From: a bacterium
Lineage (GTDB): Bacteria; BMS3Abin14
Reading direction: 5' to 3'
Length of the DNA stretch: 46,745 bases
Assembly (NCBI GenBank): GCA_041559575.1
Contig: JBFFDD010000001.1
Coordinates: 1-46,745 of the forward strand
Below the pieces are notes generated by a model. The model was given only the letters and a program-made list of their open reading frames with translations, was not told where the DNA came from and did not search any database. This document shows positions 1,533 through 45,892 of this stretch, one piece after another (position 1 is the stretch's first letter; each line of letters starts with the position of its first letter). The position numbers and the translations under genes are program-made.

Positions 1533-1560
1533 GCCACTAGCCACTAACCACTAGCCACCC
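1533..1560. repeat. Tandem heptanucleotide array (GCCACTA family, 4 units)
   Basis: gccacta gccacta accacta gccaccc. Confidence 0.85.
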
Positions 1561-1620
1561 GTCGATCCCGCCTACGGCGGGACTCAGGGCAAGCTTTTCA
1601 CTAGCTATTTGGAGTTACCC

Positions 1621-2037
1621 ATGCACCGCTACCCCTTAATCCTTTTACTAATCCTCTCCCTCCTCCCCGTTTTCGCCTGTGGCGGGGAGCCGCCTGCGCC
1701 GTCATCGGCGGTCACCAAGGTGCTTCAACTCAAGGCGAAGATTGCGGAGGTTGTGATCGATGAGGAGCGCCAGGCGCAGGTGCTGAAAATTGCCGATAAA
1801 ATGGAAAAACAGGTCAAAAAGCTCGAAAGTCTGACAGGTTCGTCCAGGAACAAGATCTTTAAAACCTACAGAAAGAAGGACGCAGCGCCGGGGGATTTTG
1901 AAAAAATCCTCAACAAGCACAGCGAAAAGAGAATGAAGGCCGTCAATGAACTGGTCACTCTTCGTGTGGAAATGAAACAGCTGGTTTCGGAAGAGGAGTG
2001 GACAAGCCTTTCAGAAGACATGGAGTTTGTCAGGTAG
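1621..2037 (+). CDS. Small helical lipoprotein (hypothetical)
   Basis: ATG at 1621 is preceded by GGAG at 1611-1614. Signal peptide with lipobox LLPVFA-C. The remainder is charged and helical, with no recognisable family. Confidence 0.6.
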   Translation: MHRYPLILLLILSLLPVFACGGEPPAPSSAVTKVLQLKAKIAEVVIDEERQAQVLKIADKMEKQVKKLESLTGSSRNKIFKTYRKKDAAPGDFEKILNKHSEKRMKAVNELVTLRVEMKQLVSEEEWTSLSEDMEFVR

Positions 2038-2100
2038 TCCAACCCAGGCAACTGGAATGTAAAGCTTGGATCAAGTAATTAATTATTAGGGAGAATCGAG

Positions 2101-2499
2101 ATGCTCATAGCACTATATCTTGCCATTTTCGGAGGTGGCGCCGGCCCGGCCTTCACCGTGGATATGTTCCTGGCCGAAACGAAGACGGCAGTCATCCAGA
2201 TCGTCGAGGATACAGAGCGGGAGCAAAGGGTCGTCAACGTCATCGAGGATCTCGAGCGGTCCGTCACGGACTACAGGCAGCAGCGTGTAAAGGTGTCAAA
2301 AACCCTCATGACGGTGGACGCCAACTATAGCTCCGGTTCCGATGATTACATGAGCGCCCTGAAAGAGCTGGAAAAGGAGTGGCTCGATTTCGAGTTCGAG
2401 GTGGCGAAATCCCACATCGAGGTGACGAAACTTCTGACCGACAATGAGTGGGATCAGCTGTTCGATCGTTTGAAGGAGTATAGGAAGGGGAAGAATTAG
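2101..2499 (+). CDS. Small helical envelope protein (hypothetical), architecture similar to 1621..2037
   Basis: GGGAGA ribosome-binding site upstream. N-terminal hydrophobic segment, then a charged helical body. The tail motif LTDNEWDQL resembles VSEEEWTSL in the upstream gene. Confidence 0.55.
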   Translation: MLIALYLAIFGGGAGPAFTVDMFLAETKTAVIQIVEDTEREQRVVNVIEDLERSVTDYRQQRVKVSKTLMTVDANYSSGSDDYMSALKELEKEWLDFEFEVAKSHIEVTKLLTDNEWDQLFDRLKEYRKGKN

Positions 2500-2580
2500 T
2501 GGCTAGAAACTAGTGGCTTGTGGCAAGCAAGATCACAGTCTTGACTTTTCTAACCACTAGTCACAAGTCACTAGCCACTT
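2497..2580. repeat. Two complementary heptad arms (TAGTGGC units, then GCCACTA units)
   Basis: Left arm: tagtggc tagaaac tagtggc ttgtggc (2497-2524). Right arm: accacta gtcacaa gtcacta gccactt (2553-2580). Confidence 0.85.
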
Positions 2581-2599
2581 AATTAAATAAAGGTACCCC

Positions 2600-3370: not shown

Positions 3371-3380
3371 AGAAGTTACG

Positions 3381-3492
3381 AGTGGCAAGTGGTTAGTGGT
3401 TAGTGACAAAAAAATTCTATTACCGCGATCTTACCAGCAACAAGTCACTAGAAACTAGACACTTAATTTTAAGCTAGCCACCAACCACTAAC
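3381..3492. repeat. Two complementary heptad arms of the same family
   Basis: Left arm: agtggc aagtggt tagtggt tagtgac (3381-3407). Right arms: gtcacta gaaacta gacactt (3444-3464) and gccacca accacta (3477-3490). Confidence 0.85.
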
Positions 3493-3506
3493 AAATGGAG
3501 GCTTCC

Positions 3507-4250: not shown

Positions 4251-4265
4251 ATACCTAAACGCTCT

Positions 4266-4334
4266 GGGGTCGAGCCCTGCCTTCTGACATTCGGAGATTT
4301 GATATCAAGACGTCAGAAGGCAGGGCTTGACCCC
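4266..4334. repeat. Inverted pair of a 23-nt REP-like element (copies 1 and 2)
   Basis: ggggtcgagccctgccttctgac (4266-4288) and gtcagaaggcagggcttgacccc (4312-4334). There is 1 mismatch when paired, with a 23-nt loop. Confidence 0.9.
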
Positions 4335-4380
4335 AATCATTCCCATATGTATTTCCCCCTGTCTGTGATAAGATAAACCC

Positions 4381-4581
4381 ATGAAAAATAAGAATTTAAC
4401 GGCTGCAAAGACACGTTTGGAGGATCAGGGAAAGGAGTTCGATCTCCTAGGTACTACACAGGGGGAAAGGATGGGGATGGTGTGGCAGTTGACCGTCAAT
4501 GCCTGGGCATTCAAGGGCGAATCCATTGATCAGCGAAGATTACAGAGACATATTGAGCATATTCATCGACGGGAACGTTGA
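4381..4581 (+). CDS. Small protein upstream of, and overlapping, the nucleotidyltransferase gene (possible antitoxin-like partner)
   Basis: 66-aa ORF ending ..RLQRHIEHIHRRER. It overlaps the next ORF in another frame. There is no direct family evidence. Confidence 0.4.
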   Translation: MKNKNLTAAKTRLEDQGKEFDLLGTTQGERMGMVWQLTVNAWAFKGESIDQRRLQRHIEHIHRRER

Positions 4582-4969
4582 GTTTCTTGTCGTGGGAGCA
4601 TACGCTCTGGCCGCTCACGGTATCCCAAGGGCAACGGGGGATATCGACCTGTGGATAAATCGATCATCCCGGAATGTTAAAAATGTCTGGAAAGCGTTGG
4701 AAAAGTTCGGTGCGCCTCTAGCTAAACTGGATGTTTCTGATCTGGAGAAACCAGGGATTGTCTATCAGATCGGTGTTGCTCCCAACCGTATCGATATCCT
4801 AACATTCATTGACGGGGTGGAATTCTCTGACGCTTGGCCTATGAGGCTGGAAGTGAATATTGAAGGCCTTATAGTACCGGTAATAGGAAAGAAGCACCTG
4901 ATAGAAAACAAGAAAACCGTTGCCAGACCCCAGGATCTTGTCGATATCGAAGTGCTGGAGTCATTGTAA
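4499..4969 (+). CDS. Nucleotidyltransferase-fold protein (AbiEii/DUF6036-like)
   Basis: VEFLVVGAYALAAHGIPRATGDIDLWI matches the G-x-D-x-D nucleotidyltransferase pattern. The tail ..RPQDLVDIEVL is also typical. The start is uncertain, with in-frame TTG alternatives downstream. Confidence 0.7.
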   Translation: MPGHSRANPLISEDYRDILSIFIDGNVEFLVVGAYALAAHGIPRATGDIDLWINRSSRNVKNVWKALEKFGAPLAKLDVSDLEKPGIVYQIGVAPNRIDILTFIDGVEFSDAWPMRLEVNIEGLIVPVIGKKHLIENKKTVARPQDLVDIEVLESL

Positions 4970-5022
4970 GTGCACTGGGATCAGGTCCTGATTTTTACCA
5001 TTTTGACGACAAATCTAAGGAT

Positions 5023-5045
5023 GTCAGAAGGCAGGACCTGACCCC
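5023..5045 (+). repeat. REP-like element, copy 3
   Basis: gtcagaaggcaggacctgacccc. The downstream flank cccca[a/g]tc[a/c]ttccca is shared with copy 2. Confidence 0.9.
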
Positions 5046-5078
5046 AGTCCTTCCCAAAAACAGCAAAAGGCATAGCCA

Positions 5079-5798
5079 TTGAACCACCTCGTATCCTTTC
5101 TTGTTGTACTCATTCTCGCATTATCCCACTTGGTTGTCAGTCGGCTAAGATTCCTAGAGGGCCCCAGGGGATATATCTGGCAGTCGATGGCTGGCGGCGC
5201 CGCCGTGAGCTACGTTTTCGTGTACATACTGCCCAGCCTGGCCAGAAAGCAGATCGTCCTGGAAAAGACAGCCTATTTCGAATTCTTTGCCCGGTACCGG
5301 GCCTACCTGCTGTGCATGGGAGGCTTCCTGGTCTATTACGGCATCAGGAGATTGACGACCCTCCCGGGTATCGGCCCGAAGACGCGCAACTGGTCGCTGC
5401 TGGCGGGTTTTTCCACTTACAGCATGCTTCTGGGATACCTTCTGGGCGAGATGGAGGATCCCGGCTTCGGTTTCCTGAGCCTTGTCGCCGTCGGCATGTC
5501 CCTCCATTTCATCGGTACCGATCACGAGTTCAGGGGCCACGACCGATCGTTCTACGACCGGACCATGCGCTGGTCCCTGGCCGGCTCCATTTTGCTGGGC
5601 TGGGGCCTGGGATCAGCGCATCTGTTGGGACATGCACCGGTGGCCGCCTGGATGGCCTTCCTGTCCGGGGCCATAATCATCAACACCCTGTGGGAGGAGG
5701 TACCGGACGAGCGCAGCGGAAGGTTCTGGCCCTTTCTCGTCGGCGCCGCTGGGTTTACCTTTCTGGTATTGCTGGTTTACAGTCTGGTCGGAATGTAA
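5079..5798 (+). CDS. Polytopic integral membrane protein (hypothetical)
   Basis: TTG start. About 7 hydrophobic segments. Contains His/Asp/Glu motifs (HFIGTDHEFRGHD, WEEVPDE). Family not recognised. Confidence 0.65.
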   Translation: MNHLVSFLVVLILALSHLVVSRLRFLEGPRGYIWQSMAGGAAVSYVFVYILPSLARKQIVLEKTAYFEFFARYRAYLLCMGGFLVYYGIRRLTTLPGIGPKTRNWSLLAGFSTYSMLLGYLLGEMEDPGFGFLSLVAVGMSLHFIGTDHEFRGHDRSFYDRTMRWSLAGSILLGWGLGSAHLLGHAPVAAWMAFLSGAIIINTLWEEVPDERSGRFWPFLVGAAGFTFLVLLVYSLVGM

Positions 5799-5850
5799 TT
5801 GTCCGGGGTCGGATCACGTTTTCCGACTGGACCGGCTTTACAGGGGTGAA

Positions 5851-5873
5851 TGTCAGAAGGCAGGGCCTGACCC
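5851..5873 (+). repeat. REP-like element, copy 4
   Basis: gtcagaaggcagggcctgacccc. Confidence 0.9.
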
Positions 5874-5986
5874 CGGAATCACCGGAATCTATACCAACTC
5901 ACTATGCAACAGCCTCCCCGGTACGGTATATTTATGGCAATGAAACATCAACCTTAATGCGGAGCAAGGGAACGGGGGATGAGCCG

Positions 5987-6727
5987 ATGAGGATCTCAGG
6001 CAGGCTGAGCTGTATCGCCGCTTTGTTCTTACTGTTTTTCATGTTTTTTACCGGAACCGGGAATGCGGTCATCCGTCTGCAGGACGATGACAGCACCAGG
6101 ATCCACCGCCTTCACGTGCTCATGAACCACGGGCTCATGATGTTTCTGGACGGGATCAACCTGCTCATGGTCGCAGACATGAAGATGGCCCCCAGCTTCG
6201 ACGAGATGGCCGCCGACTACGCCAAGAGGAACATGGCCAAGGGCAGGAGGGACATCGAGCAGGCCCTGGCCAGCGATCACATGGAGATCCTGGTGGAACA
6301 GGGTTTCGGAGACCACCCCCTGATGACCACCGCCAGGGATCTCGGCAAGACGATGCTGGAGCTGATCTATCTCCTCGAGGATATGGAGATGGATGAGTTA
6401 GCCAGCGAGAGCATGGACCTGCACCACATGCACATCCTGCTTAACAAGGGGCTCAAGGACGTGGCCAACGGATCCAACATGATCATGGCCACCCTGCTCA
6501 GCTCCATCCCCCAGGTGGACCAGTACCTGGCGAAACACGGCCGGAACATGATCAAGGACGGGCGGGCCCTGATCGTGAGCATAACCCGAAGCGAAGCCTA
6601 CAGGACCCTTCAGAAAAGGACGGAGTCCGCCCGGAGGAACAGGATCAGACAGCAGACCCAGCAGTGCGTCGATCTCTCCCTGCAGATCGTCGACATCCTG
6701 GCCAGGATGAAGCTGGTGGGGGAGTAA
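5987..6727 (+). CDS. Secreted His/Met-rich helical protein with an internal duplication (hypothetical)
   Basis: ATG at 5987 follows GGGGGA and starts a signal peptide (LSCIAALFLLFFMFFTGTGNA). The ORF part upstream of it (5312-5986) overlaps the previous gene in another frame. Two related segments are present: HRLHVLMNHGLMMFLDGINLLMVA and HHMHILLNKGLKDVANGSNMIMAT. Confidence 0.65.
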   Translation: MRISGRLSCIAALFLLFFMFFTGTGNAVIRLQDDDSTRIHRLHVLMNHGLMMFLDGINLLMVADMKMAPSFDEMAADYAKRNMAKGRRDIEQALASDHMEILVEQGFGDHPLMTTARDLGKTMLELIYLLEDMEMDELASESMDLHHMHILLNKGLKDVANGSNMIMATLLSSIPQVDQYLAKHGRNMIKDGRALIVSITRSEAYRTLQKRTESARRNRIRQQTQQCVDLSLQIVDILARMKLVGE

Positions 6728-6735: not shown

Positions 6736-7029
6736 ACGAAGGAGTAAGACGAAGACGAAGTTAAATTAAAAAAGAAGGTACGGATCGTTCTTTCTGGTTA
6801 TATATAAATTCTATTTATTATTTTAAAGTAAATAATTAAAGATATATATTAATAAATTACATTAAGTATTATTTTTTCCATATCAAAATCAGGGCCGTCG
6901 TTTGCCTGCTGACCACCCATACTTAGCAATCATGGTAATGGATGGTTCTTGAATCCCCTCAGCGTTCAGGTTTCAGAATTTTCAACGGTCTTACCGGTGA
7001 GACACTTTGTCTTCGTCTTGCTCCTCCGT
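6736..7029. repeat. 25-bp inverted repeat pair flanking a strongly AT-rich core
   Basis: acgaaggagtaagacgaagacgaag (6736-6760) matches the reverse complement of 7005-7029 at 22 of 25 positions. The core at about 6761-6895 is almost pure A/T. Confidence 0.85.
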
Positions 7030-7953: not shown

Positions 7954-8095
7954 ATTGCCAACCGTGATTCGTGATTTGTGGTTAGTGATCCGTTTCAGTT
8001 TGCAACCGGCTAAATTTTAAGGTCCTCCGCCCCATAACATGGAGAAGAGGTTTATTCTCTTAATAAAAATCTTTCTATAATTATTCTATATTGCT

Positions 8096-8623: not shown

Positions 8624-8650
8624 AACCTATGGGTCCTTCAGCATTTCTGG

Positions 8651-8723
8651 GAACTGAGAACCGGGGACTGACAGTGAACTATCAGGTTCTTCAATCTCAG
8701 TTCTCTCGACTCAGTTCTGACTT
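8651..8723. repeat. Complementary heptad arms (GAACTGA / TCAGTTC)
   Basis: Left arm: gaactga gaaccgg ggactga cagtgaa. Right arm: tcaggtt..tcagttc tctcgac tcagttc. Confidence 0.8.
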
Positions 8724-9000
8724 ACCAATTCAGCAGCTCGAGGCACACTTGCAGAGCCCCCTGCTTTCCTTTTTAACTTTGACCAGTTTCATTCCCATTC
8801 ACCCCCTTTCAGCAAATTAATAGAGAAATTATAGCAGTTGTAAAGACCCTCTGTGAAGGGGCTTGGGAAAAAAATACTGGATATATAAAAAATCCAGCAT
8901 TCAATTAAAAAAAGTGACTTGCGGTTCTGTGGTAATTGTTTTGAGAAGATTTTGTAGCCTTGTTCCTGGGACCTGACCTCTGGACACAAGACACTTGAGA

Positions 9001-9771
9001 CTAGAAACTGATTTTAAACCCCCACTTCACCTCTGTGCCCTCGTCATCCGGGGAGTTAAAGACCCTCTCAGTGAATACCACCCGGCCGTTATCGTCGATG
9101 ATCAGAACCGTCGAAGCCCTCGTACCGTAGGTGGGGCTGGTAATAAAGATCGAAGACAGGACCCTCTCCAAGTCAACGCCCACGCCTGTTTCGGGAAGAA
9201 GATTGTCGGGCGGCCTCCGGGCGTCGGAGAGCAATCTCAGGAGAGATTCGGCCGAAGGGTTTCGTTCACTGTTCAGAACCTCCAAAAAAAGGTCCTTGCC
9301 CCTGGTCACCTTGGGCCATGGTGTATCGAGGAGGTGGTTGCTCAAGCCGTAGATGCCCGGTTGGAGTTTTACAGGCATTCCCTCCCGGTTGGAGTAGTAA
9401 AGGAGATTCTCTGTGTTGCCGGCCAGAAGATTAAAACCGTTATATCGGTCCCGGTTGAGATGCACTTCCTGAATGTACTGCTCCGGATCGACCTTTTCCC
9501 GCAGGTACTCAGCGACCATGAGTCCCCTTGACAGGAGGTGTTCCCGGGTTGATGAAGGGTCACGGAAATTGGTGATGCAGGCGAACCGCCCCTCCCTGGT
9601 GACCCCCAGCCAGGTCCCCCCCCATCGAACGTCCCTCCCCGCCAGGATCGCCGGCTCTTCTTTCCAGTATCCGGCCTGCTCGGTATCCCTTTCGTAGTAT
9701 TCGTCCCGGTTCGAGGCCAGGACAAGACGGAAGCCGGGATGGGACCTGTATGCGAAGAGGACGGTGCACAT
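9001..9771 (-). CDS. NRDE family protein (TANGO2/DUF833-like)
   Basis: N-terminus MCTVLFAYRSHPGFRLVLASNRDEYYER contains the eponymous NRDE motif after Cys2. Confidence 0.9.
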   Translation of the reverse strand: MCTVLFAYRSHPGFRLVLASNRDEYYERDTEQAGYWKEEPAILAGRDVRWGGTWLGVTREGRFACITNFRDPSSTREHLLSRGLMVAEYLREKVDPEQYIQEVHLNRDRYNGFNLLAGNTENLLYYSNREGMPVKLQPGIYGLSNHLLDTPWPKVTRGKDLFLEVLNSERNPSAESLLRLLSDARRPPDNLLPETGVGVDLERVLSSIFITSPTYGTRASTVLIIDDNGRVVFTERVFNSPDDEGTEVKWGFKISF

Positions 9772-9935
9772 GACATTCCCATTCTATCAGAGGACGGGCC
9801 TGCCCGGCGTGGTATTTCCCATGACACATGAAGGAAAAAACATTATTATGGTCGCCGGATCGCAAAGAAGGCGGGGTTGGGCGATGATAGCATGTTCCAG
9901 GGGACCGCAGGGGGGTCTGCCAACGGGAGGTGCAT

Positions 9936-10814
9936 ATGTCCAGGGTGTCCAGGGATGCCGTCCTTCGTGATCTGCCCATCAACGGCCAACAGGCATTCTC
10001 TACCCATGCCGGAAAATTCAGGGAAAGGATCAAAAAACAGCAGCTCAATATCCTCAGGCCGTTCGTACCCGTATTGAAGCATGTCCTCGAGCCGAACGAG
10101 GAGATCCTTCTGGCGTCCCGGGCCATTTCCCCTATCAGGATTGTCGAGGAGCTTACCACCGGTTGGCTCATCTTCCTTATCAGGCGCTGCGTCCTGGTGG
10201 TGACCAACAGGAGGGTCCTCCACTTTCCGACGACACCGGGTTTCTCTCCCCGTGATTCCCTTTCCCAGATCTCGTTCAACGACATCGAGAGTTTCAAGGC
10301 CGGCCGCAAGATCAAGCTGAAGTACAAGAGTGGAGAGGGTGAAAAATTCCACAGGGTCCTGAACGGAAAGAAGTTTGGGAGAACCCTGTCGGCTCTGACT
10401 AAAGGAAGTTCGGCCTCCACCCAGTTCCGAAGCCGGTACGCTGTCTGTCCCAAATGCACATCGGCTCTGGTGGAGGACCGTTACACCTGTTCTAAATGCC
10501 GGCTGGAGTTCAAGAACCCGCGGACAGCGAGGCTCTTCTCTCTCATCTTTCCCGGAGGAGGCTATTTCTACACCCGTCATCCCTTTCTCGGCATTGCCGA
10601 TGCCCTGGTGGAGCTCCCGCTCCTCGTGTTTACCCTCCTCTTTCTGATCGGGGCCGCAACGGGACACCCTCAGTTCGAGGGCCAGTGGATGACGGGAGGT
10701 ATCCTGGGAGGGGTCCTCCTGATCGAAAAGCTGGTGACCATCTACCACGCTGACCGGTTCGTCAGGGAATATATCCCGGTGGAGAGGGTCTTCCGGAAGA
10801 TCTCGGGGACATAG
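9936..10814 (+). CDS. Membrane protein with a bacterial PH-like domain and a zinc ribbon (hypothetical)
   Basis: GGGAGG lies 5 nt before the ATG at 9936. CPKC..(12)..CSKC forms a zinc ribbon, followed by two hydrophobic segments. The N-terminal part resembles a bPH domain, a weak call. Confidence 0.6.
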   Translation: MSRVSRDAVLRDLPINGQQAFSTHAGKFRERIKKQQLNILRPFVPVLKHVLEPNEEILLASRAISPIRIVEELTTGWLIFLIRRCVLVVTNRRVLHFPTTPGFSPRDSLSQISFNDIESFKAGRKIKLKYKSGEGEKFHRVLNGKKFGRTLSALTKGSSASTQFRSRYAVCPKCTSALVEDRYTCSKCRLEFKNPRTARLFSLIFPGGGYFYTRHPFLGIADALVELPLLVFTLLFLIGAATGHPQFEGQWMTGGILGGVLLIEKLVTIYHADRFVREYIPVERVFRKISGT

Positions 10815-10933
10815 ACGGGGCGAGGTTGCGACTTTGCGACCGAGCGTAAAGAGGTGCATTTCTATCCGCCGATTCGGATTGTCGCTGAATCGCACGGTCG
10901 AGGATTTCTGTCCACTCAGGCTCCTTGCCGAAC

Positions 10934-10959
10934 AAAAAAGGGGGGAGATTAACTCCCCC
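10934..10959 (-). terminator. Rho-independent terminator downstream of the VWA gene
   Basis: On the minus strand: 7-bp stem GGGGGAG / CTCCCCC, 5-nt loop, followed by TTTTTT. It lies about 30 nt after the stop at 10989. Confidence 0.65.
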
Positions 10960-10988
10960 TGAGGTTTGGTTCTGTTCCGCAAAGGAGC

Positions 10989-12350: not shown

Positions 12351-12437
12351 GAAGTACCTCCTGACGTTCAATGAGGTTGTTAGTTTCGCCATTTGCCGGG
12401 TATACACGCCGGGGAGGAGGTTTATTCCAAAAAGAAA

Positions 12438-12603
12438 GTGGAAAGCGAAAAGTGGAAAGTGGAAAGAACAACGGAGATTAGAATAGAGGAATCATCGCGA
12501 GTCGCCTCAATGTAAGGGTTAAGATACAGCAAACTCGAGGGGAAAATAGGATTTGCCGGACCAGGACGCTTTTCCTTTTCACATTCCGCTATCCATTTTC
12601 CAC
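12438..12603. repeat. Complementary heptad arms (GTGGAAA / TTTCCAC) about 105 nt apart
   Basis: Left arm: gtggaaa gcgaaaa gtggaaa gtggaaa (12438-12465). Right arm: tttcct tttcaca ttccgct atccatt ttccac (12571-12603). Confidence 0.8.
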
Positions 12604-12652
12604 TTGACAAGGGTTGTCCTGGAATAAATCGGAACAACCTGTGGTATATAGA

Positions 12653-14667: not shown

Positions 14668-14785
14668 CAGGAAAGGGGGTATTCAGGAGTCGGCGGCCAG
14701 TAATTAGAATAAAGTCAGTATCTGGGATCTGGACCCAGGACCTGGTACCTGCTTAATTCCTCTGTGTCCTCTGTGGTTGACTGTT

Positions 14786-15604: not shown

Positions 15605-15870
15605 TGTAAATCCTTTTTAAACGCTCCTGAGATATTTTGCTCTAAATTGATATTTGGCGGGAAGCTCTAAGGTTTCTCGCCCGCTCGTCACGCCCGGGGC
15701 GTGATTCCCTTAACACGCCAGGACGCTGACAAATTCCCAATGAAATATTAGTTTATCGTGGTTTTCCTTGCGAGCTCTGCCTTTCCCGAGCTTGTCGAGG
15801 GTCGTCTTTGCGATAGCGAACTATTTTGTGCGCGATTTGGTGATGATCTCCAATTTACCATTTCCAATCT

Positions 15871-16716
15871 CTATTTTCCTTTCTTTAACTCCTCGTCTAT
15901 CATCCGTGAGAAACCTTCCAGGCTTCGATCGGATAAACGTCTGCCGTTGACGAAGATGGTCGGCGTTCCACGGACACCGCTCTGCTGTCCCTGCCTCATG
16001 TCACGGTTGATCAGATCGTTGATCTCCCGGCTATTTCTGTCGGCCTCGAAACGCTTCATGTCCAGGTTTAGGTCACCTGCGATCTGTTCGATGAGCTGTT
16101 CGTTGATCTTATTGTAGTTCTCAAAAAGCCGGTCATGGAACTCCCAGTATTTCCCCTGCTTGCCGGCAGCCATGGCGGCAGCGGCGGCAGGCCTGGCGAA
16201 CTTGTGGCTTCTTATGGGGAAATGGAGCTCAACGATCCTTATGTCTTTGGGGTATTTCTCGAGCACCTGCTCGAGTAGAGGCACCAGCCTCGCGCAGTAT
16301 GGTCACTGAAAGTCACTGAAGTAGGCGATCTCAACGGGGGCGTTTTTAGGGCCCTTGGACGGGGATCCCGATGTATCAAAGGTGTGAATCAGATCCAGGG
16401 CGACGATGAGGACATCCCTGCCGCTGCCTCCGGAAAGGATCAGCCTGGTCCCCACCTCGGAGAACTCCACCCTTTCGTAATCCCCGCCGGTTTCAATAGT
16501 CTGAACCTGTTGTCCGTTCCAGCTCAGGACCCTGATGACTCCACCGGTGGTGAGGACAAAGGTCCACTTGCCGTCCTGGGACACGGCTGTATCCAGGGCT
16601 TTGGAGCCAACATCGATCTTCTGGGTCGCTCTGAGCTCGAAAGCGGCGAAGGCAGGGGCGTTCAGGAAGGACGCGGCGACCAGGAAGAGGATCAACCGGG
16701 AAATGGGTTTTGCCAT
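15871..16716 (-). CDS. DsbA-family thiol:disulfide oxidoreductase, predicted selenoprotein (in-frame UGA at 16303-16305, active site U-P-Y-C)
   Basis: Two same-frame ORFs are joined by one TGA: ..VEIAYFSDFQ-TGA-PYCARLVPLLEQ.. The downstream half is a canonical DsbA fold (QGKYWEFHDRLF, GVRGTPTIFVNGR). AGGAGG lies 6 nt before the ATG at 16716. Signal peptide ..APAFA. Confidence 0.8.
16258..16291 (-). promoter_or_regulatory. Candidate SECIS hairpins downstream of the UGA
   Basis: On the mRNA, GAGGC-UGGU-GCCUC starts 11 nt after the UGA. It is followed by CUCGAG-CAGGUG-CUCGAG. These were identified by eye only. Confidence 0.45.
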
Positions 16717-28640: not shown

Positions 28641-28649
28641 AACAGAATC

Positions 28650-28717: not shown

Positions 28718-28742
28718 TAAGTCCCGAATATCAGGAACCGTT

Positions 28743-30907: not shown

Positions 30908-30926
30908 ACAGGGAGATGTTAATAAA

Positions 30927-31052: not shown

Positions 31053-31086
31053 TACGTCTTTCAGAGACCATGCCAGGAGGTGAAAA

Positions 31087-31263
31087 TTGGCCGTTCACAG
31101 CAACTTCATGGTTAAAGTCATTGACGCTTCCATGCCGGACGTCAGAAAGGCCTTGCAGGGCGCTGGAATCGAAGTGAGGAGCATCCTCCTTGTAAACAAG
31201 GAGACGATAGAGGAACCGGAAGGATCCTCGGAGGAGGCGGGGGAGCAGGAAACCGGCGATTAA
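31087..31263 (+). CDS. Possible small protein (58 aa, below the ORF-track cutoff)
   Basis: AGGAGG at 31075-31080 lies 6 nt before the TTG at 31087. The frame reads (M)AVHSNFMVKVIDASMPDVRKALQGAGIEVRSILLVNKETIEEPEGSSEEAGEQETGD and stops at TAA 31261-31263. No family was recognised. Confidence 0.3.
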   Translation: MAVHSNFMVKVIDASMPDVRKALQGAGIEVRSILLVNKETIEEPEGSSEEAGEQETGD

Positions 31264-31978: not shown

Positions 31979-32088
31979 TTACCACAGAGATCACAGGGGA
32001 GGGTCAGTACTGAGGACTGGGAACTAATAAGAATGTTAAGAACCTCAAACCTTAAACCTGTTCCTCTCTACGTGTCCTCTGTGGTTAA
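31979..32088. repeat. Spacer-spanning imperfect inverted repeat
   Basis: ttaccacagagatcacagg (left end) and cgtgtcctctgtggttaa (right end). The accacagag / ctctgtggt pairing is perfect. Confidence 0.7.
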
Positions 32089-32093
32089 ATCTC

Positions 32094-32588
32094 ATGCCGC
32101 CGAATGGAACAAAGACCCCGCCCCGTTTTCTGGCCGATGCCATGCTCGGTCGCTTGGCCCGAAGGCTTCGCATGCTCGGTCTTGATGTCCTTTACGATCC
32201 AGATGCCGACGATTCCCTGGTCCGCTACACTTCAAAACTGGAATCCAGATTCGTACTGACAAAGGATAGACGATTGTCGAGCTCTCTCCGTTCCATGGCA
32301 TATCTGATCGATGGAGATAATGTGGGGGAGGAGTTCACATCGGTGGTCCCCCTTCTCAGGAGCCTGGACTGTCTCTACGTTCCTTTGAGCCGCTGCCTGG
32401 AGTGCAACACCGAACTGACCGAAATGGCCCGAGCCGAGGCTGAAGACAGAGTACCCCGTTACGTTTACGCCTCCTGCGAGGCTTTTCGACGGTGTTCGAA
32501 GTGCCGGAGGATCTACTGGGCCGGGACCCACGCGGACAGCATGCTGGAGGGAATCAAACAGATGCTCGAGGAGATCGAAGGCCCGTGA
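32094..32588 (+). CDS. Mut7-C RNase domain (DUF82) protein
   Basis: FLADAMLGRLARRLRMLGLDV.. with a C-terminal CLECN...CSKC zinc ribbon. Confidence 0.85.
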   Translation: MPPNGTKTPPRFLADAMLGRLARRLRMLGLDVLYDPDADDSLVRYTSKLESRFVLTKDRRLSSSLRSMAYLIDGDNVGEEFTSVVPLLRSLDCLYVPLSRCLECNTELTEMARAEAEDRVPRYVYASCEAFRRCSKCRRIYWAGTHADSMLEGIKQMLEEIEGP

Positions 32589-32797
32589 GTCAACTCGGAA
32601 AGATGCTAATCACAGTGGGGATCATCACGGCGGCAGTGGGCGTCGTCCTCCTTCTCGTCCCCAGGGTCCCGTGGCTGGGCAAACTCCCGGGGGACATCGT
32701 CATCCGCAAGAGGAACACAGTGTTCTACTTCCCCATAGCCACAAGTATCGTGATCAGTATCATTCTTACGGTTCTGTTTAATCTGTTCAGGAAATGA
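32585..32797 (+). CDS. DUF2905 family small membrane protein
   Basis: GTGA overlap with the previous gene. (M)SQLGKMLITVGIITAAVGVVLLL..LPGDIVIRK..FYFP. Confidence 0.75.
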   Translation: MSQLGKMLITVGIITAAVGVVLLLVPRVPWLGKLPGDIVIRKRNTVFYFPIATSIVISIILTVLFNLFRK

Positions 32798-32802: not shown

Positions 32803-32916
32803 GGAGTAGCAAGTAATCGGTTGTCAGAGGTCAGTATTCAGCAGGCTAGATGCGAAATTGTCACGGGAGAGAGATTAATTCCCGCTGAATTCTGAATCCT
32901 GAATACTGGATACTCC
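32803..32916. repeat. Spacer-spanning imperfect inverted repeat with heptads (CTGAATN)
   Basis: Left arm: ggagtagcaagtaatcgg..ggtcagtattcagc. Right arm: gctgaat tctgaat cctgaat actggat actcc. Confidence 0.8.
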
Positions 32917-33023
32917 TTCGCCGTTATAATCCCTTGACGAATCCGCAGGGGTCTATTACGTTGTTGAACTTGCCTTTAAGTGTCGGAAAACCTTTATTTA
33001 AAAGGAAGGATTGACCCGCATCC

Positions 33024-38694: not shown

Positions 38695-38702
38695 ATCCGC
38701 CA

Positions 38703-38768
38703 GAGTTTACAGTTTTCAGTTTGCAGTTTACAGTTCTTAAGCACTGGACCCTGGACACTAGACACTGA
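38703..38768. repeat. Two adjacent heptad arrays (CAGTTTN x5, then CACTGGA-like x4)
   Basis: First array: gagttta cagtttt cagtttg cagttta cagttct. Second array: cactgga ccctgga cactaga cactga. Confidence 0.85.
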
Positions 38769-41644: not shown

Positions 41645-42507
41645 CCGTCCCTTCAGAGAAGATCGGCCTCCTGGCCGGCCTCAGCGACCTGCCCCTCGAG
41701 GTCGTCCGAGCGGTGGAGAGGGCAGGGACACCCCTCTTCGTGGCTGCGTTCAAGGGCGCCGCCGACCCGGCCATTGAGGTGACGGGGCGGGATGTCAAGT
41801 GGTTCAGTATAGGACGCCTGCAGGCCCTTCTCGACGGACTCAGGGCGTCCGGTGCCAGGGATCTCGTCCTGGCAGGAAAGCTCCCCCATGAAGTCCTCTT
41901 CTCCAGCGGTGATTTCGATGACCGACTGGTAGACTTTCTCAATTCCCTCCCCGACAGGCGGGGATCCTCCATCCTGGGAGGTTTCGTCGATCTGCTGATC
42001 TCGGAAGGGTTCCGTGTAAGGCAGCTCATCGAAACGGTTCCCGAGTTGGTACCCGAAGCGGGGCACCTGGCAGGACCACTTCCCACGGAGGCCCAGATGG
42101 AGGATGCCAGATTCGGTTGGCGGATCGCCAAGACCATAGCAGGTTTGGACATTGGACAGACCGTGGTCGTGAAGGACCTCGCGGTGGTCTCCGTGGAGGG
42201 CATGGAGGGCACCGATGAAACGGTCACCAGGGCGGGATCCATAACCGGAGGTCAGAACATCGTGGTTAAGGTCTCCAGCCCGAACCATGATTTCCGTTTC
42301 GACGTCCCAACCGTTGGGCCCGGCACGGTTTCGTCCCTGTCAGCTTCCGGGGGAGGTGTACTGGCCGTGGAGGCTGGGCGATGCTTTCTCATGGGAGGGG
42401 ATAACCTGTTCAGGGAGTGTGCGGAAAAGGCTGTCTCACTGGTTGCCCTGGACGAAACCGATATCAGCCAGGGGCAGCGTCCAGTTGGTGATGATACCCG
42501 AGCATAA
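41641..42507 (+). CDS. lpxI: UDP-2,3-diacylglucosamine diphosphatase LpxI (DUF1009)
   Basis: IGLLAGLSDLPLEV.., DIGQTVVVKD..VSVEGMEGTDETV. GTGA overlap with lpxA. Confidence 0.85.
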   Translation: MTVPSEKIGLLAGLSDLPLEVVRAVERAGTPLFVAAFKGAADPAIEVTGRDVKWFSIGRLQALLDGLRASGARDLVLAGKLPHEVLFSSGDFDDRLVDFLNSLPDRRGSSILGGFVDLLISEGFRVRQLIETVPELVPEAGHLAGPLPTEAQMEDARFGWRIAKTIAGLDIGQTVVVKDLAVVSVEGMEGTDETVTRAGSITGGQNIVVKVSSPNHDFRFDVPTVGPGTVSSLSASGGGVLAVEAGRCFLMGGDNLFRECAEKAVSLVALDETDISQGQRPVGDDTRA

Positions 42508-43282
42508 AACAGTCATCCACCCCGATGCGGTGGTCCATCCAGGCGCTGAGCTGGATGAAGGGGTGTCCATCGGAACCTGCAGTGTGATCGGCCCCCAGGT
42601 GAGGATCGGTTCAGGAAGCCGTATTGGCCCCAATGTCGTCATCACCGGGAAGACCACTCTTGGCCGGGGTAACAGCGTTCTGCCCTTTGCCGCGCTGGGA
42701 GGCGATCCTCAGGACCTGAAGTACAGGGATGAGGATACAGAAGTTATCATCGGCGACGATAATGTCTTCGGGGAGTGCACGACTGTCCACCGGGGGACGG
42801 TGACCGGGAGGGGCGTCACCACCATCGGCAGCCGGAACATCTTTATGCCCTGTTCCCATGTGGCCCACGACAGCATCGTCGGGAATGGGACGAAGTATGA
42901 GAGCGGGGCAAATCCCGGCGGTCATGTGGATGTGGGGGATGGCGCCCACATGGGCAGTTTCTGTGCCGTGCACCCTTTCTGTCGCATCGGGGAGTGGGCG
43001 TCGGTGGACCGGGGATGCATCGTCGTCAAGGATGTTCCGCCGTTCAGTGTTGTCAGGGGGGACCGGGCCCAACTTGTCGGACTTAATGAACACGGTTTGA
43101 AAAATGCCGGTTTTGAGGAGGAGGTTATCTCCCGTCTGCAGGACGCCTTTGATAAACTCTTCCGGTCAGGTCTCCGGTTTGACGAGGCGTTGGGGAGGAT
43201 CGAGGCCGGCGGCGATCCTATCCCTGAAATCGAGCGTTTGATGGATTTTCTCGGATCCTCGAAGAGGGGGTTCACAAGGTAA
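42491..43282 (+). CDS. Second LpxA-family acyltransferase paralog
   Basis: Collinear with lpxA: PQDLKYRDE, SHVAHDSIVGN, QLVGLNEHGLKN, C-terminal SKRGFTR. One helix turn is irregular (NGTKYESGANPGG). The ORF-track extension to 42287 lies inside lpxI. Confidence 0.8.
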   Translation: MIPEHKTVIHPDAVVHPGAELDEGVSIGTCSVIGPQVRIGSGSRIGPNVVITGKTTLGRGNSVLPFAALGGDPQDLKYRDEDTEVIIGDDNVFGECTTVHRGTVTGRGVTTIGSRNIFMPCSHVAHDSIVGNGTKYESGANPGGHVDVGDGAHMGSFCAVHPFCRIGEWASVDRGCIVVKDVPPFSVVRGDRAQLVGLNEHGLKNAGFEEEVISRLQDAFDKLFRSGLRFDEALGRIEAGGDPIPEIERLMDFLGSSKRGFTR

Positions 43283-43313
43283 GAGAATTTTGAGTTACAG
43301 TTTAAAAAGAAAA

Positions 43314-43410
43314 TTAGAGCATTAGAAATTGGAGCATTAGCAATTAATTCAAGATTACCCATCCCACATAGCAGACTCTAATCTCCAATCTCTATTCTCC
43401 ATTTTCTATT
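43314..43410. repeat. Complementary heptad arms (ATTAGAG/ATTGGAG and CTCTAAT/CTCCAAT)
   Basis: Left arm: attagagc attagaa attggagc attagca. Right arm: ctctaat ctccaat ctctatt ctccatt ttctatt. The right arm overlaps the lpxB stop codon. Confidence 0.85.
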
Positions 43411-44560
43411 TTTTACTCATCTCCGACGCGATGCGTGCCACCCGCTCCGAGCACCCGGGTTGGCCCATCTTGTCCCTTACCCCGGCCAGGCCCTGCTTGA
43501 TGCGCTGTCGGTACTGATCATCCTCCAGAATGCGAAGGACCTCGCCGGCGATGTTTTCCGGCGTGGCTGCATCCTGTATGAACTCCCGGACCACCCCCTC
43601 GCCGGCAACGATGTTGGCCAGGCCGATGTGGGACAGCCTCACCAACCGGCGGGCGATGGCGTGACTGACCGGGGACATCCGGTAGAGAATGACCATGGGT
43701 GTCCCCATCAGGGCAGTCTGAAGTGTGGCTGTGCCGGCGGCGGTGATCACCGAATCGCAGGCGTTGGCCACATCGTAAATCCGCTGTGCGGTTAAAGTGA
43801 TGTGCAGGCCCGACCGCTTCACCTCCTCCTTCACTGTCTCCTCGGGGAGGAAGGGAGCAAGGGGCAGGAGGAATTTCGCCGAGGGGATCTTTGCGGCGAT
43901 GATGGAAGCAGCCTTAAGGATCGTGTCCAGGTGGTATTTGATCTCATGTTGTCGGCTCCCAGGGAACAGCCCCACGATGGGACCATCCGTTTCAAGGTTC
44001 AAATGGTCAAGGAGAGCCTCTCGTCCCATCCTGAGGAAGGCCTCATCCATCAAAGGGTTCCCCACGTAATCGACCTGAATGTCAAGTCCCCTGTAGAGTT
44101 CCGGCTCGAAGGGGAAGATGACCGCCAGGTGATCGATGGACGAGGCGATTCTTTTTACCCTGCCCCGCCGCCAGGCCCACACCTGAGGACTGACGAAGAA
44201 CAGGACCGGGATCCCTGCTTTTTTTGCATGTCTGGCCAGACGGAGGTTAAAATCAGGATAATCAATGAGAACCAGGACATCAGGAGGGTCGGCGCCGTAA
44301 AGGATGCGTTTCAGTTTTCTGAAAACGCGGAGAATGGAAGGGAAATGACCGAGGACCTCAGTGAACCCCGAGGCCATGAGTTCCTCATAGGGAACGACAA
44401 TCTCACAGCCGGCATTCTCCATGAGGGGGCCGCCCACACCGAAGAAAAAGAGGCCGGTGTCAACCTCTGATGCGGCGGTCACCAGATTGGAGCCGTGATG
44501 GTCACCGGATGCTTCCCCTGCGACGATGAGGGCACGGCGTTTTGGTTGAGCATTTCCCAT
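43406..44560 (-). CDS. lpxB: Lipid-A-disaccharide synthase
   Basis: ALIVAGEASGDHHG.., VDYPDFNL, and a GTATLQTALMGTPMVILYR-type motif. Confidence 0.93.
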   Translation of the reverse strand: MGNAQPKRRALIVAGEASGDHHGSNLVTAASEVDTGLFFFGVGGPLMENAGCEIVVPYEELMASGFTEVLGHFPSILRVFRKLKRILYGADPPDVLVLIDYPDFNLRLARHAKKAGIPVLFFVSPQVWAWRRGRVKRIASSIDHLAVIFPFEPELYRGLDIQVDYVGNPLMDEAFLRMGREALLDHLNLETDGPIVGLFPGSRQHEIKYHLDTILKAASIIAAKIPSAKFLLPLAPFLPEETVKEEVKRSGLHITLTAQRIYDVANACDSVITAAGTATLQTALMGTPMVILYRMSPVSHAIARRLVRLSHIGLANIVAGEGVVREFIQDAATPENIAGEVLRILEDDQYRQRIKQGLAGVRDKMGQPGCSERVARIASEMSKK

Positions 44561-44571
44561 CGATGATCCTG

Positions 44572-45666
44572 TTACAGCGCCCCTGTCAGGGTGGCGCAGA
44601 CCTCATCGATCTGGGCCTCCGAAAGCTCTGGAAAAATGGGCAGCGAGAGGACCTTTGCAGCTGTCTCCTCGGAGACCGGAAGGGTGAGTTCCCTCCATTC
44701 CTCCCTGTAAACCTCCTGCCGATGCAGGGGGATGGGGTAGTAGACAGCACTGGCAATGCCAGATTGCCCCAGGGCACGATGGAGGACGTCGCGCGAATCG
44801 CTCATGATGGTGTACTGATGGTAAACATGGGTTCCCTTTCCGTCCTCGAAGGGGGGCGTCAGTTCGGTGCCGGAGAGGGCTTCGGTATATCTGCTGGCGT
44901 TGGAATAACGGAGACGGTTATAGGTGTCGATATGTTTCAGTTTGGCACGGAGGATCACGGCCTGGACCTCATCCAGCCGGCTGTTGTAACCGATGATCGA
45001 ATGGTGATACTGAACCCGGCTGCCGTGGTTCCGGAGGACCCGGACCTCCTCGGCAACAGCGTCATCATCCGTGACCACCATGCCCCCATCGCCGTAACAG
45101 CCGAGGTTTTTGCTCGGGAAAAAGGAGAAACAGCCTGCGTCGCCCAAGGCCCCTGTTTTCGTCTGTCCGTAATCGGCCCCGAAGGATTGGGCGCAATCCT
45201 CGATGACCCTGAGGGAATGTTTTCGGGCCAGATCGGTGATGGACTCCATGTCAGCCGGCTGTCCGAACAGGTGCACAGGGATTATGGCTCTTGTCCGATC
45301 GGTTATGGCTTCTTCGATGAGGTCGGGATCGACATTGAACGTCCTCGGGTCGATATCCACGAAGACGGGTTTGGCCCCTATGTATGAGATGGCCTCCGCC
45401 GTGGCGATAAATGTGAAGGGAGACGTGATCACCTCATCACCGGGGCGGATCCCGCAGGCCCGGAGAGCCAGGTGAAGCGCGTCCGTTCCTGAAGCGACAC
45501 CGACAGCGTTCCGGACGCCGCAGTAGGCGGCCACCTCCTCTTCGAGGGATTGGACGTTCGGGCCGAGGATGAACCGGGTCGAGTCCAGGACCTGACGGAT
45601 GCCCTCCTCGATCTCGTCCTTTAACCCCTGATACTGAATCTTCAGATCCACCATGGGGATTTTCAT
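44572..45666 (-). CDS. DegT/DnrJ/EryC1/StrS-family PLP aminotransferase (GnnB-like)
   Basis: IPMVDLKIQYQ.., GTDALHLAL, PSKNLGCYGDGG (PLP Lys). It lies 11 nt upstream of lpxB. Confidence 0.9.
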   Translation of the reverse strand: MKIPMVDLKIQYQGLKDEIEEGIRQVLDSTRFILGPNVQSLEEEVAAYCGVRNAVGVASGTDALHLALRACGIRPGDEVITSPFTFIATAEAISYIGAKPVFVDIDPRTFNVDPDLIEEAITDRTRAIIPVHLFGQPADMESITDLARKHSLRVIEDCAQSFGADYGQTKTGALGDAGCFSFFPSKNLGCYGDGGMVVTDDDAVAEEVRVLRNHGSRVQYHHSIIGYNSRLDEVQAVILRAKLKHIDTYNRLRYSNASRYTEALSGTELTPPFEDGKGTHVYHQYTIMSDSRDVLHRALGQSGIASAVYYPIPLHRQEVYREEWRELTLPVSEETAAKVLSLPIFPELSEAQIDEVCATLTGAL

Positions 45667-45892
45667 AGGGTTCTCCCCTTTACGGGTTTCCAGTTCAAGG
45701 TTTTCAGTTTACAGTTGAAAATCGATGGCGCTTTGAGCGGGAATTGATGATTCTGGAAGAGAACCGTTCCGTGCGCCATGTTTATGTCCTGTGGTCCAGG
45801 CTCCAGGATTAAATTCAAAAATATTATCTGGTTAGGCCTCCTGAGTGCTCCTTATCCTCTCACCGACACCCCGATACGCCGCTTCTCCGATA

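Follow-up and report, generated by a model that had tools for sequence, protein, structure and literature searches.

The intergenic spacers of a contig of 46,745 nucleotides from an uncultured bacterium, BMS3Abin14 (JBFFDD010000001.1; we call this whole contig the window), carry numerous short tandem arrays of heptanucleotides. We suggest that these arrays are intergenic microsatellites of the type described as short tandemly repeated repetitive (STRR) sequences, an explanation to which we give an even chance. According to it, the arrays would be made and homogenised by slippage in steps of 7 nt and kept in unconstrained spacer DNA, their inverted pairs would arise by inverted duplication or template switching, and any role would be at most generic and structural. 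The arrays had been noticed in a first reading of the sequence, here called the original prediction, which described them as paired arms able to fold into hairpins and proposed that they could substitute for terminators.

Period-7 arrays are restricted to the spacers

We mapped the genes of the window from open reading frames (ORFs) and Pfam domains. The map was refined for three small genes, rpmF (18549-18731), acpP (26412-26645) and DUF2905 (32585-32797), which lie inside what the original prediction had taken for spacers, and it leaves about 6.8 kb of spacer and about 40 kb of coding DNA. Arrays are indeed widespread, although not in nearly every spacer as had been stated: they are present in about 20 of the 29 spacers of at least 40 nt (about 69%), where they are spread along the whole contig, and they cover about 19% of the intergenic bases. 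They are also found on other contigs of relatives.

Tandem Repeats Finder (TRF) detected about 20 period-7 arrays, including those at 1533, 2550, 3388, 7963, 12434, 20879, 26235, 28650, 28688, 30926, 31022, 32885, 38704, 38742 and 43376. Base autocorrelation in the spacers has its maxima at lags 7, 14 and 21 (0.332, 0.296 and 0.296, respectively), and the genes show only the codon period of 3. We also carried out a strict scan, in which 12 or more of 14 positions had to match at lag p, for p = 4-13, with dinucleotide shuffles as the control. In such conditions, 13 arrays of period 7 were found in the 6.8 kb of spacer versus 0.03 ± 0.17 in the shuffles, none was found in the 40 kb of coding sequence, and no spacer array was found at periods 4-6 and 8-13. 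With a loose lag-7 scan we observed 39 arrays, 35 of which are intergenic though spacers make up only 12-13% of the window; the four genic ones correspond to the noise level of periods 5, 8 and 10. The expected excess of period 7 over shuffled sequence is thus confirmed.

The arrays are 21-47 nt long and contain 3-6.7 units (median 4.1). All ten units given as examples in the original prediction are present, and the tandem 7-nt units are where it had placed them, with copy numbers that never reach the upper end of the predicted 4-9. As it had also stated, the arrays are AT-rich, with 41.7% GC versus 47.0% in the remaining spacer DNA and 57.5% in the genes. The idea that each unit has one or two variable positions found no statistical support, since a within-array test for a conserved core versus variable positions was not significant (p = 0.92) and mismatches do not cluster at given positions of the unit.

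Arrays prefer gene edges (Kolmogorov-Smirnov test, p = 0.006), and 12 of the 19 stop-proximal ones begin at most 16 nt from the stop codon. In four cases the stop codon lies inside the array, namely those of hyp132 (2497), TANGO2 (9001), DsbA (15871) and lpxB (43406), so that the reported overlap with stop codons stands. Their locations are mixed: some arrays follow stop codons, others precede Shine-Dalgarno (SD) sites or a conserved promoter, and convergent as well as divergent spacers contain them.

Arrays in related bacteria

The window belongs to a clade of uncultured bacteria whose BamA homologues are 98, 71, 70 and then 48-60% identical to its own; after a gap come Desulfobacterota, Nitrospirae, Omnitrophica and similar groups, at no more than 37% identity. 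Neither the gene content nor the homologues are cyanobacterial, which for the gene content had been proposed. The nearest recorded BamA homologue is the one at 98% identity; the window product itself gave no exact look-up match from its GTG start, since its sequence differs from that of the recorded product, and BamA peptide patterns gave zero matches in the first metagenome scan.

For background we used a panel of 80 loci around lysS from diverse bacteria (1.24 Mb; the LysRS matches listed are at most 57% identical) and applied the same strict scan. Sixty-two of these loci have no period-7 array; on average the panel has 0.32 arrays per 10 kb and the window 2.8. The array-bearing loci belong mostly to deltaproteobacteria-like metagenome-assembled genomes (MAGs) outside the clade of the window, many with complementary arm pairs; examples are HGW-Deltaproteobacteria-15 (L003, 4.7 per 10 kb) and Syntrophorhabdus, Geobacter, Desulfuromonadales and Desulfobacteraceae MAGs. 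Within the clade of the window, relatives L084-L088 all have arrays, few being found in L089. In plasmid alpha of Nostoc PCC 7120, the first 50 kb contain 3 strict arrays, versus 13 in the 47-kb window. This uneven occurrence indicates that the trait is patchy and polyphyletic, with the window at its dense end.

Synteny between the window and its relatives is excellent, which gives access to the comparison of orthologous spacers that had been proposed. In relatives at 58-72% BamA identity, arrays and arm pairs are present in the orthologous spacers with different units; arrays at orthologous positions extend to relatives with only about 55-60% protein identity. The M50-OmpA spacer carries CCGGGAA in the window and TGAAAGT/CTTTCAA arms in L086; the spacer downstream of OmpA, CAGTTTC/AACTGGA in the window and AGTTGAA/CAACTTT in L086; the HAD-M50 spacer, AGTACAN/CTTTGTA in the window and CGTCCAA/TTGGAC in L088; and the spacer downstream of bamA, two arrays in the window and five different arrays in L084. 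Because occupancy is about 70%, such co-occurrence alone is no proof of homology. The spacer upstream of lysS can however be aligned between the window and L084 (LysRS 79% identical), and there the arrays are positional homologues in which all copies changed together, GTCAGAG corresponding to GACAGAG and CTGAATN to CTGACCT. Since every copy changed, these arrays have evolved in concert. In the same spacer, a block at 32931-32964 (CCCTTGACGAATCCG..GGGGTCTATTACGTTGT; L084 271-304; L085 1388) is about 95% conserved while the rest cannot be aligned; this block is probably the promoter of lysS, TTGACG being its -35 element.

Some orthologous spacers do without arrays. The fabG-acpP spacer is 181 nt long with 4 arrays in the window and 45 nt long without any array in L086, and in L092 the spacers of the orthologous hyp256 cluster measure 29-39 nt and have no arrays. 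These short array-free spacers indicate that arrays add DNA and do not replace signals; in these relatives the arrays are dispensable.

Complementary arms and a possible role in RNA

The original prediction had placed a second, complementary array in most of these spacers. In 13 of the 29 spacers we observed an inverted repeat that exceeds the shuffles with z>3; heptad arm pairs account for only about 5-8 of those, clear in only that many of the roughly 20 array-bearing spacers, and the rest are unrelated palindromes. The six clear pairs (2497-2581, 3378/3474, 12432/12585, 28646/28721, 30921/31053 and 43311/43418) consist of opposite-strand arrays close together, with inverted-repeat z of 3.3-7.1 and best fold z of -3.3 to -6.4; two more, at 20876/20980 and 32823/32916, are weak. 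The second arm typically ends 8-25 nt before an SD site or start codon, and for lysS just upstream of the conserved promoter.

The best of these pairs would form the long hairpins with periodic mismatches that had been predicted. The segment 2495-2585 folds with -37.1 kcal/mol (z -6.4) and 28643-28722 with -31.0 kcal/mol (z -5.5), the latter into helices of 5-6 bp broken every 7 nt; 43308-43415 and 30918-31058 reach z -4.0 and -3.3, respectively. This does not extend to the spacers in general, since whole-spacer folding gives z below -2 in only 7 of 29, and no significant fold was found for the double array between bamA and skp (z -0.3) or for the fabH-acd spacer (z -0.8). With DNA parameters the best arm pairs fold equally well, again into long hairpins with periodic internal loops.

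The mismatches between arms are phase-locked, 37 of 44 falling in the two commonest phases versus 27.3 ± 1.9 expected (p<2e-4). Arm complementarity is 0.82 in the best register and still 0.67 after a slide of ±7 nt, for a background of 0.24. The arms are thus complementary at the level of the unit consensus, and the phase-locked mismatches together with the tolerance of a 7-nt slide indicate that each arm has been homogenised internally and independently.

Could these pairs act in RNA? They would be long segmented hairpins in 3' untranslated regions or between cistrons, serving as non-canonical terminators, exonuclease barriers or RNase III-type processing sites. The stability of the best pairs against shuffles agrees with such a role, as does the position of their first arm, which begins 2-16 nt after stop codons, and so does a weak substitution deficit in the spacers (see below). 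The scarcity of ordinary terminators is also in its favour: as had been noted, the 47 kb hold only one convincing intrinsic terminator, which lies on the minus strand (10941-10959), 30 nt past the stop of the VWA gene. (In its longest ORF call, 9846-10982, hyp378 includes this terminator within its 5' end, and for that reason the true hyp378 start is probably further downstream.) However, the terminator scan found no intrinsic terminator at the arrays and no U-tract after the arms, a partner arm is missing from most array-bearing spacers, and several arrays placed right after stop codons cannot fold.

Base-pairing statistics do not favour RNA either. In co-directional spacers of the window and six relatives, the non-Watson-Crick positions of heptad arm pairs comprise 5 G·U, 14 A·C and 25 transversions; when all inverted repeats are pooled, G·U and A·C number 21 and 30. 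G·U is therefore not preferred over A·C on the sense strand, and the signature of a structured RNA was not found. The minimum free energy (MFE) of the sense strand is lower than that of the antisense strand in 44 of 65 spacers (p = 0.008), which could speak for RNA folding; we judged this asymmetry uninformative because a G+T skew alone can yield it. Moreover, the arms are equally stable as DNA, their mismatches are phase-locked and not compensated, and the relatives without arrays in orthologous spacers argue in the same direction. With no G·U bias, no U-tract and many arrays without a partner, a role in termination or RNA stability is not supported as a general explanation of the arrays, and we consider the RNA-level explanation as a whole unlikely.

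One further hairpin, unrelated to heptads, was observed at 22192-22250 (GAGTGACGGTGAGCCGGTGT … ACACCGTTTCTCCGGCACTC) in the spacer between the acyl-CoA dehydrogenase gene and etfB (spacer MFE z -3.4).

Slippage as the proposed explanation

We propose that replication slippage in 7-nt steps may create the arrays and keep re-homogenising them, and that the replication or repair machinery of this lineage would favour that step. Arrays would be excluded from coding DNA since 7-nt indels wreck reading frames, and would expand in spacers until they meet constrained sequence such as stop codons, promoters and SD sites, so that they would come to fill most free spacer DNA. The copies of each array evolve in concert, and arrays would stay in the same spacers for a long time. 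Arm pairs may originate at spacer hairpins, through inverted duplication or template switching, each arm being then homogenised alone, and units could spread between neighbouring spacers. Any role would be generic and structural, not sequence-specific: in a minority of cases, paired arms would give segmented hairpins at 3' ends or in the gaps between cistrons, and the arrays would be dispensable for expression of the flanking genes.

Several observations favour slippage: the enrichment of period 7 only, confined to spacers; the concerted unit changes; the arms homogenised internally; and the lack of a G·U excess on the sense strand. The added length in place of replaced signals, the heterogeneous positions of the arrays, their phylogenetic patchiness and the parallels in the literature (see below) also support it.

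A number of points weigh against this explanation. Slippage alone does not account for the complementarity of arms. The units of different spacers resemble each other more than they should, with 38 pairs within one mismatch versus 11.7 ± 3.3 expected, in agreement with the earlier claim that unit families recur at distant loci, and cores containing ACT or AGT are enriched among units (z = 4.1). One gene cluster uses a single family. In this cluster, hyp142-hyp132-hyp256-hyp251, one family occupies three neighbouring spacers, with CCACTAG upstream of genes and CTAGTGG downstream, and the orthologous cluster of L091 (55% identity) has one family, CCCCTAG/CCCCTAA, in every spacer, arranged as TAGCTA-centred palindromes (see below). 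Independent slippage does not predict one family per cluster; such a pattern calls for units to be converted or to spread among neighbouring spacers, for a mobile element, or for a binding factor that the spacers share. About 11 arrays show zero indels across three strains that are 99.0-99.9% identical to the window, so that at 0.1-1% divergence the arrays are not hypermutable contingency loci. Finally, 1 substitution was observed in 239 spacer sites, where the rate at four-fold degenerate sites would give 4.9 (Poisson p = 0.045, Fisher p = 0.12), an underpowered comparison that gives a weak hint of constraint.

Two ideas about the units were rejected. A single universal consensus does not exist, since the enriched cores differ: ACT, CACT and CCAC in the window, AACT and TCAA in relatives, CTGA and GAAC in other MAGs. 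Segmental duplication does not explain the shared CCACTAG unit, as the flanking genes are not paralogues.

Other explanations of the arrays

The shared families would find a natural place if the arrays were platforms for protein binding. A nucleoid or regulatory DNA-binding protein, or a multimeric binder of single-stranded RNA, would read a short core every 7 nt; inverted arrays would loop or bridge, and cluster-specific units would be barcodes of regulons. Besides the non-random cores common to units, this is favoured by the cluster that keeps a single family in all its spacers across 45% protein divergence, its unit changed in concert. Furthermore, many arrays end 8-25 nt before an SD site or start codon, like the TAACTGA repeats proposed as sites of a translational regulator (PMC4679880), and paired tandem repeats of Geobacter metallireducens have been annotated as putative global-regulator or IHF/HU sites (PMC2700814). 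However, dozens of units in 47 kb need many factors or one of very loose specificity, and no candidate protein was identified. In most spacers the unit sequence turns over completely between relatives, no conserved core stands out against variable positions inside arrays, and a 7-bp period leaves successive sites on different faces of B-DNA. We regard protein binding as quite unlikely.

Arm pairs could also be non-autonomous mobile palindromes with heptad arms, similar to miniature inverted-repeat transposable elements (MITEs) or REPINs, which insert at or next to stop codons, hop locally and change their arms by slippage. In favour of this idea is L091, where five copies of [TAGGGNN]n-TAGCTAA-[NNCCCTA]n lie within 8 kb (2648-2898, 4568-4648, 5429-5554, 6095-6246 and 10199-10264) with a conserved palindromic centre; three of them start with the same AAC-TAG, which supplies the stop codon of unrelated genes. 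Of 80 metagenome contigs sampled, at least 7, which come from different samples, also carry palindromes centred on TAGCTA with heptad arms (L103, L115, L117, L128, L165, L169 and L170). The search pattern is however only 15 bases long and gives many chance matches, heptad arms on both sides being found in only 10 of 99. The short "empty" orthologous spacers of L092 and L086 and the CCACTAG family in three neighbouring spacers beside non-paralogous genes would also fit mobility, and CTAG is the target site of the IS630 family. On the other hand, most spacers of the window have their own unit with no common centre or termini, and no family of near-identical full-length copies of such palindromes was seen in the window. 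Arm lengths vary widely, copies cannot be aligned as whole elements, and neither target-site duplications nor a transposase were seen, the ORF and Pfam gene map of the window being free of transposases. We regard mobile palindromes as quite unlikely. The units of the L091 palindromes, for their part, resemble telomere repeats.

A bolder proposal, which we consider a long shot, is that the arrays are a system of cis-elements independent of any fixed sequence, in several uncultured lineages without canonical terminators. Located at stop codons and ahead of SD sites, they would be read by an RNA- or DNA-binding factor with a 7-nt register, or act as slippery hairpins of multiple registers, and would set 3' ends, process polycistronic mRNAs or insulate cistrons, with cluster units as co-evolving regulon barcodes.

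That the arrays are assembly or sequencing artefacts is practically excluded, even though long arrays do lie at contig ends of some MAGs (L081, which starts with one of 216 nt, L013 and L084) and very long ones may be collapsed or lost: at 21-47 nt the arrays are well within read length, their restriction to spacers is biologically coherent, three independent assemblies match the window with zero gaps (L001 and L002 at 99.9% and L083 at 99.0% identity, over 5.8, 2.3 and 9.7 kb, respectively), and the array-flanked protein P0121 is found on 14 contigs from NCBI, JGI and Logan. The long arrays themselves, L081 1-216 (31 copies of CGTAGCT/CGTAACT), L013 7118-7198, and L084 1-250 and 6650-6865, suggest that such repeats break short-read assemblies and are under-represented in MAGs.

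Genes and other repeats of the window

The coordinates and positions of the arrays are collected in Table 1. The window is a contig of housekeeping genes, with, among others, the blocks yceD-rpmF-plsX-fabH, acyl-CoA dehydrogenase-etfB-etfA, fabD-fabG-acpP-fabF and lysS-lolC-lolD-bamA-skp-lpxD-fabZ-lpxA-lpxI-lpxB. No Rfam match was obtained anywhere in the window at the gathering threshold.

Table 1. Heptanucleotide arrays of the window, compiled from TRF, lag-7 scans, direct reading, and inverted-repeat and folding z-scores.
Position	Unit and copies	Location and partner
1529-1563	(A/G)CCACTA x5	upstream of hyp142; first member of the CCACTAG family
2497-2524	arm 1, TAGTGGC-type x3-4	first unit holds the TAG stop of hyp132
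2549-2581	arm 2, CCACTAG-type x4.7	ends 18 nt before hyp256 ATG; hairpin with 2497-2524
3378-3410	AGTGG(C/T)(A/T) x4.7	7 nt after hyp256 stop; complements 3474-3496
3439-3467	(C/A)ACTAGA x4	
3474-3496	CCA(A/C)C(T/C)A x3.3	directly 5' of the GGAGG SD of hyp251
7959-7989	CGTGATT x4.4	divergent spacer, adjoins start of PAS-GGDEF gene
8647-8668	CTGGGAA x3	23 nt after stop of C_GCAxxG gene
8982-9010	GGACACT-type x4	overlaps TANGO2 stop codon (minus strand)
12432-12473	arm GTGGAAA x6	divergent spacer, adjoins start of VWA gene
12585-12605	complementary arm TTTCCAC x3	8 nt before start of ECF sigma gene; inverted-repeat z = 6.1
14720-14753	(A/C)(T/C)CTGGA x4.9	upstream of hyp297
15851-15873	CAATTTC x3.3	overlaps DsbA stop codon (minus strand)
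20876-20911	AATTCAA x5	16 nt after fabH stop
20956-20980	TTAACCT x3.6	partial complement of 20876-20911
23066-23097	AAGTTCC x4.6	2 nt after etfB stop; no partner arm
26233-26393	CAAGTAC, CTGAGAA, TGTAATA, AAACCAG	four successive unrelated arrays that fill the fabG-acpP spacer
28646-28678	arm AGTACAN x4.7	5 nt after HAD stop
28685-28721	arm C(C/T)TTGTA x5	segmented hairpin with 28646-28678
29614-29645	CCGGGAA-type x4.6	16 nt after M50 stop
30921-30966	arm (A/G)GTTT(C/A/G)(C/G) x6.6	13 nt after OmpA stop
31022-31053	complementary arm AACTGGA x4.6	upstream of SD of 58-aa ORF; hairpin z -3.3
32004-32062	TGAGTAC, TAAAACC	two short arrays, MBL-Mut7C spacer
32823-32843	GTCAGA(G/A) x3	positional homologue of GACAGAG x4 in L084
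32882-32916	CTGAATN x5	just upstream of lysS promoter-like block 32931-32964; homologue is CTGACCT x4 in L084
38700-38739	CAGTTT(A/T/G) x5.7	5 nt after bamA stop
38741-38768	(C/A)ACTGGA x4	8 nt before skp SD; not complementary to 38700-38739
43311-43346	arm ATTAGAG(C)-type	convergent spacer; TRF period 8/15
43372-43418	arm CTC(T/C)AAT x6.7	runs into lpxB stop codon (minus strand); hairpin with 43311-43346, z -4.0
45698-45725	CAGTTTA-type x4	

Several genes deserve mention. The fatty-acid synthesis cluster is interrupted between fabH and fabD by the acyl-CoA dehydrogenase-EtfB-EtfA module (20995-24493), whose EtfA has an N-terminal 2x[4Fe-4S] ferredoxin domain. A second LpxA-like acyltransferase (42504-43282; Hexapep and Acetyltransf_11) follows lpxI. 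The orientation of lpxB is inverted compared with relatives, L085-L089 having lpxB directly after lpxI on the same strand. Between the OmpA and MBL-fold genes, an unannotated ORF of 58 aa (31087-31263) is preceded by a strong AGGAGG SD; genes of 55-65 aa occupy the same position in L086 (4776-4973), L088 (4345-4512) and L089 (3380-3547). The N-terminal half of hyp471 (5312-6727, 471 aa) is a low-complexity region rich in Arg, Gly and Pro and holds a partial motif like those of repetitive extragenic palindromic (REP) elements; the gene as called may extend too far, or its 5' part may be spurious.

Repeats other than heptad arrays were also observed. A GC-rich palindromic family without heptads (…CTGGGGTCGAGCCCTGCCTTCTGAC … GTCAGAAGGCAGGGCTTGACCCCA…) is found at 4265-4335 and 4974-5048, just downstream of hyp251 and hyp156, with a partial third copy at 5852-5864; its inverted-repeat z is 14.6 and its spacer MFE z -7.1, and the family resembles REP elements or MITEs. 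Between convergent genes, a hexamer-like array of GACGAA (6736-6762) and its complement (7004-7029) lie 240 nt apart around a very AT-rich block (about 6780-6880). The 22-mer GGAGTAAGACGAAGACGAAGTT is identical at 6741-6762 of the window and at 46-67 of L084, a non-orthologous site upstream of lysS, and looks like an element dispersed within the clade. Another palindrome, TTGATGAC..TCGCAAAAAGTCATCAA, is conserved in spacers of several members of the clade (L084 6870-6897, L086 12245-12357, L087 5153-5980 and L089 795-975) and has 0 matches in the window when up to 1 mismatch is allowed. The window lacks the clade-wide palindrome TCGCAAAAAGTC.

Comparison with known systems

Intergenic heptamer repeats have been on record in cyanobacteria for 35 years and were subsequently described in Xanthomonas, Burkholderia, Geobacter and Beggiatoaceae; neither a mechanism nor a function has found acceptance. 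The uncultured clade studied here is an extreme case, with about two thirds of the usable spacers and about a fifth of the intergenic DNA occupied by many different units. Its relatives show the evolution of the arrays clearly: the same spacers are occupied, units change in concert, arms are homogenised independently, a unit may spread across neighbouring spacers and stop codons are sometimes captured. The clade therefore makes the explanations by slippage, RNA structure, protein binding and mobile elements testable by phylogenetic profiling and metatranscriptomics. From a practical point of view, the arrays break short-read assemblies and may be mis-called as ORF ends.

The likeness to STRR sequences put forward in the original prediction holds in a broad sense, for a genome that is not cyanobacterial. 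As in the heterocystous cyanobacteria Calothrix and Anabaena/Nostoc, 7-nt units are repeated head to tail in at least 3 copies, few per array, are over-represented and mostly intergenic, and form several families per genome. In the strict sense of the term, which implies a cyanobacterial host and canonical units, the arrays of the window are not STRR sequences. The canonical units are CCCCAGT, TTGGTCA and CAACAGT; no array of the window has one of these as its consensus, and two are one mismatch away from an STRR unit (ACACAGT versus CAACAGT, and AACTGGG versus ACTGGGG). The window also differs by its uncultured host clade, its far higher unit diversity per kb and its frequent arm pairs.

REP, BIME and REPIN elements are 20-40 nt long, occur in hundreds of near-identical copies, are mobilised by RAYT and are not internally periodic. 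Like the arrays of the window, they are extragenic, sit at gene 3' ends or between cistrons, form inverted hairpin doublets and have lineage-specific sequence at conserved positions. The arrays of the window do not appear to fit the definition of REP, and they do not fit that of a terminator; nor are they phase-variable contingency simple sequence repeats (SSRs), as about 11 of them show no copy-number differences between strains and the arrays flank housekeeping genes.

Heptamers are the most abundant class of long SSRs in many prokaryotes and are attributed to polymerase slippage, as far as the work of Mrazek et al. (2007) is summarised in PMC4679880 and PMC4692102. In other phyla too, the same spacers are occupied in related species with variable sequence, and inverted pairs occur (PMC4679880, PMC4692102). 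Xanthomonas has 186 GGGAATC arrays per 5 Mb, about 90% of them intergenic, at a mean distance of 28 nt from the ORF that precedes them (Rehm et al. 2015, PMC4692102). They usually have about 4 units and no link to gene function, and about 40% form convergent inverted pairs capable of a stem-loop; in sister species the same genes flank them, although their sequence varies (PMC4692102). The window shares the inverted opposite-strand pairs, but only in the minority of its array-bearing spacers described above, and its array density is at least tenfold higher. Moreover, the GGGAATC and GGGGA(C/T)T repeats of Xanthomonas and Nostoc form one G-rich family capable of G-quadruplexes, whereas the window has dozens of AT-rich units without G3 tracts or quadruplex potential; it is the TAGGG-type elements of L091 that resemble the Nostoc GGGGA(C/T)T family.

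Closer to the window in its deltaproteobacteria-like host, Geobacter metallireducens carries intergenic sets of 3-5 tandem units of 7-9 nt (MTYCTGA, TCTCCGTS and GTTGCTYN) as opposite-strand pairs at variable distance (Aklujkar et al. 2009, PMC2700814). These repeats, including five tandem copies of MTYCTGA, are absent from the sister species and annotated as putative global-regulator sites (PMC2700814). Their CTGA-type cores resemble CTGAATN and CTGAGAA of the window; they form however a few families of 16-49 near-identical copies found by BLAST, whereas the spacers of the window are largely individual, and IHF/HU binding is a proposal there. In marine Beggiatoaceae and some Cyanobacteria and Bacteroidetes, intergenic TAACTGA arrays of 2-6 copies lie just upstream of start codons (MacGregor 2015, PMC4679880). 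They resemble those of the window by their position beside housekeeping genes and their patchy phylogeny, and differ by having a single unit, 169 direct sets versus 1 inverted, and only start-proximal locations. The window is thus a new and very dense member of the known, mechanistically unexplained intergenic heptamer repeats.

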